Source: Candidatus Nomurabacteria bacterium (GTDB lineage Bacteria; Patescibacteriota; Minisyncoccia; Phycocordibacterales; UBA9973). Taken from it: 37,365 nt of DNA. A model generated the notes under the pieces. The model saw only the letters and a list, made by a program, of their open reading frames with translations. It was not told the DNA's origin and made no database searches. Positions 3,017 through 18,768 of this stretch are shown piece by piece. The position numbers and the translations under genes are program-made. Within the stretch, counting starts at the first letter, position 1, and each line of letters starts with the position of its first letter. The DNA lies in contig JACPXJ010000002.1 of NCBI GenBank assembly GCA_016196605.1, positions 1-37,365 of the forward strand, written 5' to 3'.

Positions 3017-3478
3017 TTATTTCCCAAATTTTTCTATTAGAGCATCGAAATTTTTTCCGCATTCTTCAAATTTTTCAAAAACCTCAGGACCAGTACCAAG
3101 ATTAGGGGCAACTGAATTATAAATTTCACTACCTTTGTTTGTTAATTCACTTAAAACAAACATCGCTCCTGGATTTCCCTTTGATCTTTCTGTAACATCT
3201 TTTTCAATCTGCGAATCAACCCCCGCCCCATCTTCTTGTGTTTCTGGTGAACGTTCTTTGGGCCAAGAAGTCTTCACACGGTTATACACCGCCCGAATAG
3301 ACTTCTCATAAAAAAGCGGGAAAACGTTTCCGTTTGCCTTATATACTTTTTCTTTATTAAGCTCCCACTCTTTCTGGCTTTTACTTGATTCCATTAAAGC
3401 AACTACGCCTTCTTCTCTTGTTAAGAGAGATCCGCCTTCTTGTTTTTTAGATGAAGGTGGAAAGATTTTCTCAAACAT
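3017..3478 (-). CDS. Hypothetical protein (shares a roughly 45-aa domain with 4429-4650)
   Basis: 153-aa ORF with a consensus promoter upstream; EGVVALMESSKSQKEW...KANGNVFPLFY. Confidence 0.75.
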   Translation of the reverse strand: MFEKIFPPSSKKQEGGSLLTREEGVVALMESSKSQKEWELNKEKVYKANGNVFPLFYEKSIRAVYNRVKTSWPKERSPETQEDGAGVDSQIEKDVTERSKGNPGAMFVLSELTNKGSEIYNSVAPNLGTGPEVFEKFEECGKNFDALIEKFGK

Positions 3479-3510: not shown

Positions 3511-3539
3511 ATTATACCCCCCCCGACGTACCATGTCAA
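3511..3539 (-). promoter_or_regulatory. Consensus sigma70 promoter with a G8 tract in the spacer
   Basis: Minus strand TTGACA-tggtacgtcgggggggg(17 nt)-TATAAT. Confidence 0.8.
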
Positions 3540-3615: not shown

Positions 3616-3993
3616 TTACTTAAATACACTTTCCTTCCCTGTATAAGCTTTTGCTAGTTTGAATGTCTTTAAATGGTCCTGTAAGCCAATTTCTTTGACA
3701 TAATCAAGAAATTCTTTCGGGAGAGGAGATGGACCAACCCAGACGCTTCTTTGGATCATTATATAATCAAAGTTTTTTAACTGGCGACGAAACCAATCTC
3801 TTTCTTTTTTCTTTTCTTCAACTACGTCATACATCAAAATCAGATTTTTCGGAGAATCTTTTATAAACGGTGAGCAAAAAGCTGTATGGTAAAAATTTCG
3901 CTTCCTGTTCTTCTTCTTTACGCGCCTTCGATGACTGTCTCCAAAAACTGGCAGACCAAAAGCATTTACCCGCATCCCTTTGTAATAAGCCAT
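3616..3993 (-). CDS. Stand-alone Cas2-like / PaaX-central-domain-like protein
   Basis: LILMYDVVEEKKKERDWFRRQLKNFDYIMIQRSVW matches the YD...R..L....Q.SVW pattern of Cas2/VapD/PaaX; no CRISPR array or other cas genes seen. Confidence 0.75.
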   Translation of the reverse strand: MAYYKGMRVNAFGLPVFGDSHRRRVKKKNRKRNFYHTAFCSPFIKDSPKNLILMYDVVEEKKKERDWFRRQLKNFDYIMIQRSVWVGPSPLPKEFLDYVKEIGLQDHLKTFKLAKAYTGKESVFK

Positions 3994-16050: not shown

Positions 16051-17094
16051 TTATATCCTATCATATAATTCTCTCCTAATTTTTCCAGCTAATTTGTAAC
16101 TATTCCCATGTGAAATCAACCCTAGATAAGATTGGACTGTTTCCTGCTTTGGATTATTCCTTAAATTTTTCAACATTCGGTTCTTGGTAGTCGTCCGTAA
16201 AACTCGATGCTTTGGAAAATGCACCCAGCCGAGGAAATCAAGGCCGGAAGCAAAAGTTTTAATAAAAACTTTGTCGGGATGAAGTTGTAGCTTAAGTTTG
16301 TGTTCAAAAAAATCAGAAATTTTAGGGAGCAAATTTTCAAGATAATTTTTACTATCGCTTAGTATCGCAAAATCATCCGCATACCTGATATAATATTTTA
16401 CTTTCAATTCTCTTTTCATAAACTGATCAAATTCGTTCATGTAAATATTTACCAGAAGCTGGGAAGTTAAATTCCCTAACGGCAACCCCTTGCATATATC
16501 AGCCCCGCCGACGCTAAAGCTTTGGCGGGCAGGCATGGCGTAGGTATGCTTTGAATTGAAACTATCTATCACCTGTGAAAGCAGCCAGAGAACATCTTTG
16601 TCAAAGAGACACTTTGACAATATCGATTTCAAAATACTGTGGTCAATGCTCGCAAAGAATTTCCGAATATCGCATTTGAGCACCCAGCAGGTTTTGGTGT
16701 TGTTTTTTGAGACTTTTCTAGAGAAATCGCGAAATCTACTTATGGCTTTATGCGTTCCTTTGTTTATCCGGCAGGAATATGAGTCGTGAATGAATTTGGA
16801 ATCGAAATACGGATAAAGCTCTTGGTAAATTAAATGGTGAAGCAATCTATCTCTGACTAGTGCCTTATGTATCTGCCTCGGTTTCGGATCGGAAATATTA
16901 AAAGCATGATAACCGCCATGCGTGTAAGTTTTATTTTTCAAATCATTTTGTAGAGACAGAATATTATCCATCAGGTGCAGCTGAAATTCTTGAACGTCTT
17001 TTCTATTTCTTTTGTCGCGTAAAAATTCCTGCCAAGCTTTAAGCAGATTTTCTATGGTTATGATATTATCATATGTATGAACAAATCTTTTCAT
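16051..17094 (-). CDS. DGR reverse transcriptase
   Basis: KPRQI, RDRLLHH, SYSCR..KGTH, LKCDIRKFF, GLPLGNLTSQ, YIRYADDF, DFLG; 347 aa, no maturase or endonuclease domain. Confidence 0.96.
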   Translation of the reverse strand: MKRFVHTYDNIITIENLLKAWQEFLRDKRNRKDVQEFQLHLMDNILSLQNDLKNKTYTHGGYHAFNISDPKPRQIHKALVRDRLLHHLIYQELYPYFDSKFIHDSYSCRINKGTHKAISRFRDFSRKVSKNNTKTCWVLKCDIRKFFASIDHSILKSILSKCLFDKDVLWLLSQVIDSFNSKHTYAMPARQSFSVGGADICKGLPLGNLTSQLLVNIYMNEFDQFMKRELKVKYYIRYADDFAILSDSKNYLENLLPKISDFFEHKLKLQLHPDKVFIKTFASGLDFLGWVHFPKHRVLRTTTKNRMLKNLRNNPKQETVQSYLGLISHGNSYKLAGKIRRELYDRI

Positions 17095-17482
17095 GATTCC
17101 CGGACCCCCCCCCGCAGCGCCTTCAGCGCTTCTAAAAACAAAAACCGCCTACTTTATTTGGTTTAATATATACAACGATTTTCCTAAAGCCCATCGCTAT
17201 ACTCTGGGCGGAAAGATTGAGGATTACTTTCTTGGCCTCTTGGAAAATATTTTTATTTCTATATATCTGCCGCCGGAAACTAAAATCCCCCGCCTCATCT
17301 TGGCAATTTCCAAACTTGATGGAGTCAAATTCTTCCTGCAAATTGCCTGGGAAAACAAATGCGTTCCCAATGAGAAATATTCCCTTCTTTCAGAAAACTT
17401 GGATGAAATAGGCAGAATGCTCGGCGGCTGGAAAAAAGGCATAGAAAACAATTTGCAAAAGAAAACTCCTCCAAACAAATGA
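17093..17482 (+). CDS. avd: Avd-like four-helix-bundle accessory protein (antisense to RT/TR)
   Basis: FPKAHRYTLGGKI...LDEIGRMLGGWKK, typical of bAvd/four-helix-bundle proteins; lies between TR and RT. Confidence 0.88.
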   Translation: MIPGPPPAAPSALLKTKTAYFIWFNIYNDFPKAHRYTLGGKIEDYFLGLLENIFISIYLPPETKIPRLILAISKLDGVKFFLQIAWENKCVPNEKYSLLSENLDEIGRMLGGWKKGIENNLQKKTPPNK

Positions 17483-17497
17483 AGGAGAAACAGCGAG

Positions 17498-17611
17498 TTT
17501 CGGGGTTACGAAGCGATGCCGATACTTGGCATTCCAGACGTTGTCGTTTGAGAACGGATTCACGTTGACCTTGAGCTGACCATTGTCGTCGAAATTCACG
17601 TTGGCAACGAA
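17498..17611 (-). repeat. DGR template repeat (TR)
   Basis: Aligns without gaps to 18015-18128 (offset 517); 32 adenines and 8 AAY codons in the VR frame. Confidence 0.95.
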
Positions 17612-17943
17612 GAATTGTGCAGAAAGCCATCCATTCCACTGCCGACTCAAGCAATTCTTAATATATTATATATGATAGTCTAAGAAAATCGGGAGTCGTG
17701 CTGTATATTATTTGGGGCTTAAAAGCCCGCAAACTCACTGCACCAACTTTATATGTTTTTTATTTGTTAAAAACTAATTCACTCTTTCGCAAGATATAAT
17801 TACCCGACAAAATTCTCAAATCAATTTTTAAATAATCATGGCTTAGAGTCTTGACCCATAAGCATTACCCGATTACAGATTTAGTATAGCAAAATTAAAA
17901 AAATAAAGAACCAAAGAGTAAAAGTTTCAAAGTGTATAAATAG

Positions 17944-17991
17944 AAAAAGCCGCGCACACTTTCTCTGGTTAGAAAAAAGCGTGGCGGCTTT
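17944..17991 (-). terminator. Hairpin downstream of VR (terminator and/or DGR homing stem-loop)
   Basis: AAAGCCGC(17946-53)...GCGGCTTT(17984-91) closing a longer imperfect stem, followed by TTTTT on the minus strand, 20 nt after the target stop. Confidence 0.7.
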
Positions 17992-18011
17992 GTGATTGGA
18001 AAGTAGCAAAG

Positions 18012-18623
18012 CTACTGCGGGGCGACGAAGCGACGCCGACACCAGGCATGCCAGACGCAGCCGCGAGAGAACGGAAACACGCGGACCCCGAGCCGACCAC
18101 CGCCGCCGAAAAACACGCTGGCAACGAAACCCCCTTCAAGCTCGAAGAATGTGGCATAACCGTCGGTACGGAGAGCATCCGGATGGTCGTCACAGAAGAT
18201 CAGAACTTGTTCCCGGTTCTGCCAGCGGCCGCGTCCTGCGCCCAGACTGCCGAAGACCTTGGCCCAGCTGCCGTTCACGATCTGCTCGTAAACGATGGCA
18301 TCTGTTGCCCTAGAGGATTTTTCCTCCGGCACAGCCTCTTCTCCGTAGACCCTGTCGCCGAAAACACCACTCCCCTTGAATTTTTTGGTGCCATGGGTGG
18401 CGGGAACGTGGAAGGTCGTCCTATCGAACAAACGGCGAAGGTAAACGACCGGCTCGGCTTTCGGACGTTTCCAATCGCCGAATTGCTCTTCCCGATCTTC
18501 TGGAGAGAGATTGTTGAACCGCTCCCATTGATCGAGTGTGATCTGGCGATCACGATACTTTTGCAGTGTGTCAATTTGCAGACCAGCCAACTTAGTGGCC
18601 GTATCCGCTTCGATGGTGTTCAT
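18012..18623 (-). CDS. DGR target (variable) protein, function unknown
   Basis: Last 38 codons are the VR; likely start MNTIEAD (18623); no signal peptide or TM segment evident. Confidence 0.9.
   Translation of the reverse strand: MNTIEADTATKLAGLQIDTLQKYRDRQITLDQWERFNNLSPEDREEQFGDWKRPKAEPVVYLRRLFDRTTFHVPATHGTKKFKGSGVFGDRVYGEEAVPEEKSSRATDAIVYEQIVNGSWAKVFGSLGAGRGRWQNREQVLIFCDDHPDALRTDGYATFFELEGGFVASVFFGGGGRLGVRVFPFSRGCVWHAWCRRRFVAPQ
18015..18128 (-). repeat. DGR variable repeat (VR)
   Basis: 85/114 identical to TR; all 29 differences fall at TR adenines; ends at the stop codon. Confidence 0.95.
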
Positions 18624-18768
18624 CGTTTTCCTTTTGTTTATGCAACGACGGAATGTCGTCACAAGTTTAAAGAAACACTTGTCAAACACTCGATGTTTGA
18701 CACTTTTATTTCCTAAAACCTGTGGCGAATCCGTCTTTATTTAAAGAGCTTATCTGTATATTGTACAC

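Follow-up and report, generated by a model that had tools for sequence, protein, structure and literature searches.

Diversity-generating retroelements (DGRs) are, to our knowledge, the only natural system of targeted protein hypermutation known in prokaryotes, and they are especially common in bacteria belonging to the candidate phyla radiation (CPR, Patescibacteria). Here we describe a DGR on contig JACPXJ010000002.1 of a Candidatus Nomurabacteria bacterium (assembly GCA_016196605.1); the whole stretch that was analysed, positions 1 to 37,365 of the forward strand, is called the window. The closest described systems are the CPR cassettes catalogued by Wu et al. 2018 (PMC5758913). In the main text of that study, architecture B3, with the order template repeat (TR), avd, reverse transcriptase (RT) and written TR-(avd)-RT, makes up 90% of the set of CPR elements, and cassettes with parts on both strands are stated to require at least two transcription units. 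The preprint of Handa et al. (10.1101/2023.10.23.563531) reports a putative Avd-binding stem-loop just downstream of the TR in 207 of 278 Avd-containing DGRs, CPR included, with stems most commonly of 9 bp. The element in the window belongs to architecture B3: its avd lies between the TR and the RT, on the opposite strand. With moderate confidence, we propose that it is a B3 DGR whose TR is made as a stand-alone RNA and whose avd and RT genes diverge from a junction that carries a candidate tract-length switch.

The DGR is complete on the minus strand of the window (16051–18689), with all four parts present and intact (Table 1). Every DGR-defining sequence feature that we examined was found: an RT with a YxDD motif, adenine-specific differences between the TR and the variable repeat (VR), and a VR at the 3′ end of a target gene. 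The RT translation shows the catalytic YADD as well as LGNLTSQ, which we take to be a DGR-specific RT motif. Read on the minus strand, each of the 27 mismatches between TR and VR is an adenine in the TR (16 changed to G, 7 to T and 4 to C), and the target stop codon lies 6 nt past the end of the VR repeat. The target protein matched no Pfam or NCBIfam family. Judged by these features, the element is an ordinary DGR of the CPR/Patescibacteria type and apparently active. The same VR was found on contigs of three sequencing runs, a form of data from which rare variants drop out.

The original prediction for this locus had placed target, TR and RT on one strand, with avd on the other strand and between TR and RT. 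The coordinates bear this out, and avd takes up 390 nt of the 406-nt gap between RT and TR (17095–17500). The avd stop had been put 15 nt from the TR; the ungapped repeat gives 18 nt, and counting three further A-type positions gives 15. As predicted, the plus-strand open reading frame (ORF) is a genuine Avd. Its protein matched the Pfam family bAvd (PF22296; E = 6.5e-13, 49.5 bits, cut-off 40) and the NCBIfam family DivGenRetAVD (E = 5.6e-16, 58.7 bits, under the equivalog cut-off of 80). An AlphaFold2 model from 66 homologues contained four helices (predicted local distance difference test score 89.7), and among its top Foldseek matches were the BPP-1 Avd (4dwl; TMt 0.89–0.90, root-mean-square deviation 1.4) and Avd chains from DGR ribonucleoprotein structures such as 8ub7. 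Profile match, fold and conservation together rule out a spurious ORF.

The prediction had also suggested that the layout may recur in Parcubacteria. We found 381 RT relatives in species-representative genomes and at least 566 on metagenome contigs, analysed the best 80 of each, and sought avd by tblastn with the Avd of the window in these 160 loci plus the window itself (161 sequences). An opposite-strand avd lay directly upstream of the RT in 154 of the 161, that is, in all 154 that could be assessed, the other seven having less than 120 nt of upstream sequence; avd was on the RT strand in none of the 161. The metagenome loci partly duplicate the genome loci (19 near-identical clusters). The species-genome loci alone gave 77 of 80, and the other three again have less than 120 nt upstream. 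Among the first 78 avd-bearing sequences, 65 had an A-specific TR/VR pair. The 13 without a usable pair comprised ten with too little upstream sequence, two with no pair (L008, L045) and one with the roles reversed (L059). Without exception the TR shares the strand of the RT, and the distance of its 3′ end from the avd stop is −20 to +61 nt, mostly 0–30 nt. The layout does recur, but it is not new. It was already catalogued as B3 in the main text of Wu et al. 2018 (PMC5758913), including the need for two transcription units, so the novelty that had been claimed for an inverted architecture does not stand.

The same tabulation split another part of the prediction. In the window, the ATGs of avd and RT do overlap by 2 nt within a TCATGA palindrome, and the ATG at 17093 is the sole canonical in-frame avd start ahead of helix 1. 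Across the CPR loci, orientation proved general (154 of 154), whereas the 2-nt overlap was seen in only 4 of 53 loci by heuristic start calls, the window included. Going by these calls, the palindromic overlap is a detail of the lineage, confined to close relatives.

Past the 3′ end of the TR, the minus strand carries a stem-loop followed by an interrupted U-run. In the window it lies 14–45 nt past the TR and overlaps the avd stop and the last ~8–10 avd codons. The terminator scan reported it for the minus strand alone, with a T-run behind 8 pairs of which 4 are G–C, and it folds at −13.2 kcal/mol (z −2.17). The same arrangement, a stem-loop and then a U-run broken by one C or G, could be read from the alignment in 64 of the 65 loci with a TR/VR pair, the remaining locus (L062) being gapped there, and it begins ~15–25 nt after the TR across these loci. 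RNAalifold on the 65 loci gave 9 pairs with compensatory changes in every pair. Of 575 cells, 86.1% were paired, a share that none of 500 shuffles reached (71.4 ± 1.2%); covariation scored 0.541 versus 0.274 in shuffles, and sliding the partners by 1–3 columns left 40–58% paired. The U-tract motif is at least 90% conserved in the 65-locus alignment, and the stem-loop stays put while the length of the Lys-rich Avd tail varies among homologues. In these respects 17457–17487 looks like an intrinsic terminator that would end or attenuate the TR RNA. Two points weigh against this assignment: the interruption of the U-tract by C or G means that termination may leak, and the U-tract also encodes the conserved Lys-rich tail of Avd, so that part of its conservation may lie at the protein level.

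Rfam returned a single chance-level match, HCV_SL1412 (E 0.47, under the gathering score). When we compared the stem-loop with the Avd-binding stem-loops described in the preprint of Handa et al., position and stem length agreed and the tetraloop did not, as the loops are mostly 6–16 nt across our loci. By this analogy the stem-loop is most likely a candidate handle for Avd binding as well as a terminator or attenuator.

The 3′ end of avd and the stem-loop also appeared outside the strain. Contigs of other organisms from the three runs matched 17395/17403–17503 with 7 mismatches and 2 gaps and diverged exactly at the TR boundary, while contigs of the window strain break at 17395–17422. The 3′ end of avd and the stem-loop are therefore nearly unchanged among different DGRs of the community.

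On the other side of the TR, the target gene is predicted to have a strong terminator of its own. The 81-nt stretch around it folds at −31.3 kcal/mol (z −5.62), with 0 of 200 shuffles as good. Together with the stem-loop after the TR, this means that terminator-like elements flank the TR on both sides. The ~330 nt between the target terminator and the TR are non-coding and show a column conservation of 60–94% in 15 close relatives. They contain an A/T-rich 13-nt block with a −10-like core (17700–17712), present in 57 of the 65 loci at 45–113 nt before the TR, and a covarying small hairpin (17714–17730). Such features suggest that 17612–17945 is probably the promoter and structured 5′ leader of the TR RNA. 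The stretch also holds a TTGGTG-like block and a GCAGTG...AGATGG block shortly before the TR.

We propose that the cassette would comprise four separate transcription units. The target transcript would stop at its own strong terminator, and the TR would then be made as a short stand-alone RNA of ~240 nt, consisting of the conserved leader, the 111-nt TR and the stem-loop/U-tract that ends or attenuates it ~45 nt past the TR. That stem-loop would most likely double as an Avd-binding stem-loop of the Handa et al. type. Overlap between avd and the TR RNA would be limited to the last few avd codons and would come from two convergent units being packed together, with no long antisense spacer involved. 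On this evidence the TR is most likely a self-contained short RNA. Against the proposal stand the window scans, in which a sigma-70-like promoter appeared neither for RT, in the minus-strand interval from TR to RT, nor for avd on the plus strand, and the fact that its transcript ends and promoters are all read from sequence. As had been predicted, an avd promoter, if there is one, must sit inside the RT coding region.

The original prediction had instead taken the spacer and the RT leader to be the antisense of avd, and had seen in the complementary transcripts a possible antisense or interference control of mutagenesis. This can be examined in the synonymous codons of avd, which we compared among 19 close relatives. 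Synonymous identity was 0.56 overall and 0.44–0.59 in the central ~90 codons, and it rose to 0.70–0.75 in the first ~17 codons after the homopolymer described below and to 0.67–0.69 in the last ~15. Because it is raised at the ends only, extra nucleotide-level constraint appears limited to the ends of avd, and most of its antisense strand gave no sign of a functional spacer. The conserved stem-loop after the TR and the lack of extra constraint at the central synonymous sites disfavour an antisense spacer or leader beyond the last avd codons. The same two observations, with the target's own terminator, leave antisense or interference control unsupported. That the TR RNA ends before the region antisense to avd, which had been named as the outcome that would overturn the prediction, is now the better-supported reading, with the end predicted within the last ~10 avd codons.

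A fuller version of the antisense idea has TR, a long spacer and RT on one minus-strand transcript, the spacer being antisense to avd and the complementary avd and TR–RT transcripts controlling each other by antisense pairing or interference. The missing sigma-70-like promoter between the TR and the RT start agrees with it, as RT may then depend on read-through, and the interrupted U-tract could make termination only partial. Conditions at the RT start are also compatible: the G9 tract that ends 10 nt before the RT ATG resembles a G-rich ribosome-binding site on a leadered mRNA, and the raised synonymous constraint in the first ~17 avd codons after the tract lies beside this start. The main text of Wu et al. 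(PMC5758913) says merely that at least two transcription units are needed. The single transcript would nevertheless have to pass the conserved terminator-like stem-loop found straight after the TR in 64 of 65 loci, and the central ~90 avd codons show no excess synonymous constraint. In other lineages, moreover, the RT has a −10-like hexamer of its own: of 123 non-redundant contexts, 32 have TAnnnT directly after the tract (background 2.6%), and in 15 of those 32 the RT ATG follows 7 nt past the hexamer, the geometry of a leaderless mRNA. We therefore consider a joint transcript of TR and RT unlikely.

Antisense pairing could also act in the opposite direction, with avd transcripts running across the TR, pairing with TR RNA and damping cDNA synthesis. 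The U-tract of the stem-loop lies on the minus strand only, and the terminator scan found no plus-strand terminator-like site in 17482–18537, as such read-through would require. The idea is drawn purely from the absence of a motif, however, and polymerase might still pause or halt at the palindromic stem-loop; we regard it as quite improbable. A stand-alone TR RNA with only marginal overlap with avd remains our preferred reading.

In the proposed cassette, avd and RT stand head to head and would be expressed in opposite directions from a compact junction with a slippage-prone G/C homopolymer at its core. In the window this is a C9 tract in avd codons 5–7 (Pro5–Pro7); read from the RT strand it is a G9 that stops 10 nt upstream of the RT ATG. 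Of 154 loci, 147 have such a G-run, as seen from the RT strand, separating the avd body from the start of RT; it is 6–12 nt long, with a mode of 9–10. By length, the first 78 sequences divide into 2 with 6 nt, 5 with 7 nt, 8 with 8 nt, 29 with 9 nt, 22 with 10 nt, 8 with 11 nt and 1 with 12 nt, besides 3 that lack the tract; its distance to the RT start ranged from about 6 to 60 nt among loci. The genome (617 kb, 41.5% GC, 83% complete) contains two G/C runs of at least 9 nt, compared with 0.7 expected under independent bases, and both stand at DGR avd/RT junctions.

The length of the tract varies between otherwise identical sequences. We compared three DNA runs of one study as contigs; one of them may be the source of the assembly. 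A contig of run X2 (16489–17422, 934 nt) matched the window without mismatch apart from an additional C in the tract (C10), and the contigs of run X3 break at the tract (17104–17133). Among the related loci, two pairs (L043/L137 and L097/L099) show no difference over ~1,410 nt other than one G in the tract; a further pair (L089/L096) has 11 differences besides that in the tract. A C10 tract makes Avd, read from the ATG at 17093, stop 17 codons after the tract, and the upstream ATG at 17077 is in the same dead register with C9. One C gained or lost would thus truncate Avd, and the window copy would be in the ON register. Because cDNA synthesis requires Avd in BPP-1, the length of the tract would switch mutagenesis on and off stochastically. 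A search for MutS domain V gave matches in none of 21 genomes (this one and 20 relatives, 16 of the 21 at least 90% complete), compared with 11 of 14 control genomes.

We tentatively suggest, as a possibility short of a favoured conclusion, that the junction tract is a conserved contingency switch across Patescibacteria, in which slippage toggles Avd, and in some lineages RT, so that a subpopulation hypermutates while the TR RNA stands alone. Several observations weigh against it. Upstream of the tract, 27 of the 75 loci that bear one offer an ATG, GTG or TTG in frame, about the proportion expected by chance, which fits a switch that is frequently OFF and equally well a tract that is 5′ untranslated region in many lineages. 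In many lineages a TTG in frame also stands just behind the tract. Every tract length was taken from assembled contigs, where one-base differences could be homopolymer errors, and the tract length was the same in 16 of 19 near-identical clusters, though many of these are probably the same data filed twice.

The tract may then be no switch at all but a proline-rich Avd N-terminus, a 5′ untranslated or promoter element, or an RNA or DNA structure, with the length differences arising as assembly or sequencing noise. The chance-like ON fraction, the TTG after a tract that may be untranslated in many lineages, the variable distance to the RT start and the derivation of every length from contigs, none from raw reads, all agree with this. 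Prolines in a genome of 41.5% GC do not need a pure CCC run, however, and length varies from 6 to 12 nt among relatives while the position at the start of avd is fixed. The tract is the sole difference over 0.9–1.4 kb in three independent lineages, an apparently decayed RT copy with no detectable avd keeps just a 4-C remnant, and a search of the 21 genomes found no MutS. On balance we think it rather unlikely that the tract has nothing to do with switching, and we keep the contingency switch as the tentative reading of the junction.

Folding beside the G-run gave a mixed picture. RNAalifold on 73 loci found no shared hairpin there, and in the window the fold of this stretch does not surpass that of shuffled sequence (z +0.88; as good in 165 of 200 shuffles). 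Per-locus folds averaged −6.8 kcal/mol, compared with −1.9 kcal/mol in a control window inside avd (Wilcoxon p 3.5e-11); the region is G+C-richer, and only 24 of 73 folds had a z below −1.5 against shuffles. A hairpin beside the G-run may be a feature of a subgroup and is not established. We also considered the G-run as the spacer of a fixed −35 RT promoter. By eye, the distance from a conserved TGGCAA-like block to the −10-like hexamer is 11–18 nt, and we rejected this as a general rule. Elsewhere in the window, a C8 homopolymer (3517–3524), one of four 8-nt G/C runs in the genome, occupies the gap between two minus-strand ORFs (3017–3478 and 3616–3993). In the literature searched, we found no paper linking diversity-generating retroelement, avd and homopolymeric tract.

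Table 1. Features of the DGR and its junctions (positions in the window)
Feature	Position	Strand	Description
RT	16051–17094	−	347 aa; RVT_1, E 3.3e-24 (Pfam profile search)
TCATGA palindrome	17091–17096		Holds both ATGs; overlap 2 nt (17093–17094)
avd	17093–17482	+	129 aa, 390 nt; convergent with TR, divergent from RT
C9 homopolymer (G9 on RT strand)	17105–17113	+	avd codons 5–7, Pro5–Pro7
Stem-loop and interrupted U-run	17457–17487	−	7–8 bp here; terminator scan, fold and covariation
TR	17501–17611	−	Direct repeat with VR; 111 nt, 76% identity, ungapped
Conserved non-coding stretch	17612–17945	−	~330 nt, target terminator to TR
Strong terminator hairpin and U-run	17946–17991	−	Predicted to end the target transcript
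Small hairpin	18002–18016	−	Just after VR; contains target stop codon (fold)
Target gene	18012–18623	−	203 aa from ATG 18623; ORF open to GTG 18689
VR	18018–18128	−	3′ end of target gene

The target gene stands out by its base composition, with a GC content of 55–61% compared with ~38% in its flanks. In related loci the high GC spans entire target genes, beyond the VR. Over 62 loci the 450 nt 5′ of the VR averages 49.5% GC, and in the same loci the RT averages 34.7% and the far flanks 40.7%; target-gene GC exceeds that of the RT by more than 8 points in 45 of the 62.

The genome holds further relatives of the element. A second DGR is split over two other contigs of the assembly (C22:1–1430 and C23:21700–22424), where the end of C23 overlaps the start of C22. 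Its avd and RT are 85% and 76% identical to those of the window, and it shares the 2-nt ATG overlap, the G9 tract and the stem-loop. Beside its stem-loop lies A-poor sequence that runs on into a GC-rich ORF and looks like a VR, not a TR. Either the TR was lost by recombination between VR and TR, or the repeat collapsed in assembly. This copy also disposes of a remote second target for the TR of the window: the sole other match in the genome (C23:22197–22292, 72%) has mismatches at all four bases and belongs to this paralogous DGR. A third RT relative (C18:9987–10908) is spread over two frames (residues 7–151 and 175–339), with no avd detectable upstream and four Cs left at the tract position; it looks like a decayed copy. 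Among the 21 genomes, 12 encode bAvd (PF22296), with up to five matches per genome, so that multiple DGRs per tiny genome appear common in the group.

What is of interest in this locus is the proposed stand-alone, terminator-capped TR RNA and the homopolymer at the junction, not the layout or antisense control. If the proposal is right, the template would be a small RNA gene with its own terminator, this terminator would also serve as a handle for Avd, and CPR DGRs would need no long spacer; a self-terminated TR RNA would also simplify their reconstitution. A slippery repeat gating Avd would directly answer how cells limit the cost of a standing mutator, and access to a programmed mutator would itself depend on a mutable repeat, in cells that yielded no MutS match.

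The homopolymer contingency loci of Neisseria, Haemophilus and Campylobacter undergo phase variation by slipped-strand mispairing. The junction described here shares with them a G/C run of 7–12 nt near a coding 5′ end or between divergent genes, predicted frame shifts from one-base changes, and apparent length differences between otherwise identical sequences, seen here in contigs. It differs in that the controlled gene would assist a machinery of targeted mutagenesis and would not encode a surface antigen, and in that the tract may be untranslated in many lineages.

Compared with the CPR B3 cassettes in the main text of Wu et al. 2018 (PMC5758913), the element has the same order and orientation of TR, reversed avd and RT, the same host group and a target that likewise lacks a known domain. 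The stem-loop and U-tract, the junction homopolymer and the overlapping starts are not described in that main text, and its supplementary tables may list relatives. With the BPP-1 DGR (mtd-VR, avd, TR, spacer, brt; architecture B1, as set out in the text of Handa et al. 2018, PMC6182149) it shares the A-specific differences between TR and VR and the four-helix bundle of Avd. Both also have a stem-loop directly downstream of the TR, as the preprint of Handa et al. (10.1101/2023.10.23.563531) reports for BPP-1. No counterpart of the 140-nt BPP-1 spacer with its priming site could be identified in the window element, and the stem-loop has a U-tract and a loop of 6–8 nt in place of a tetraloop. 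Whereas avd lies upstream of the TR in BPP-1, here it is reversed and sits between TR and RT, and the position that avd holds in BPP-1 is taken by the ~330-nt conserved non-coding stretch.

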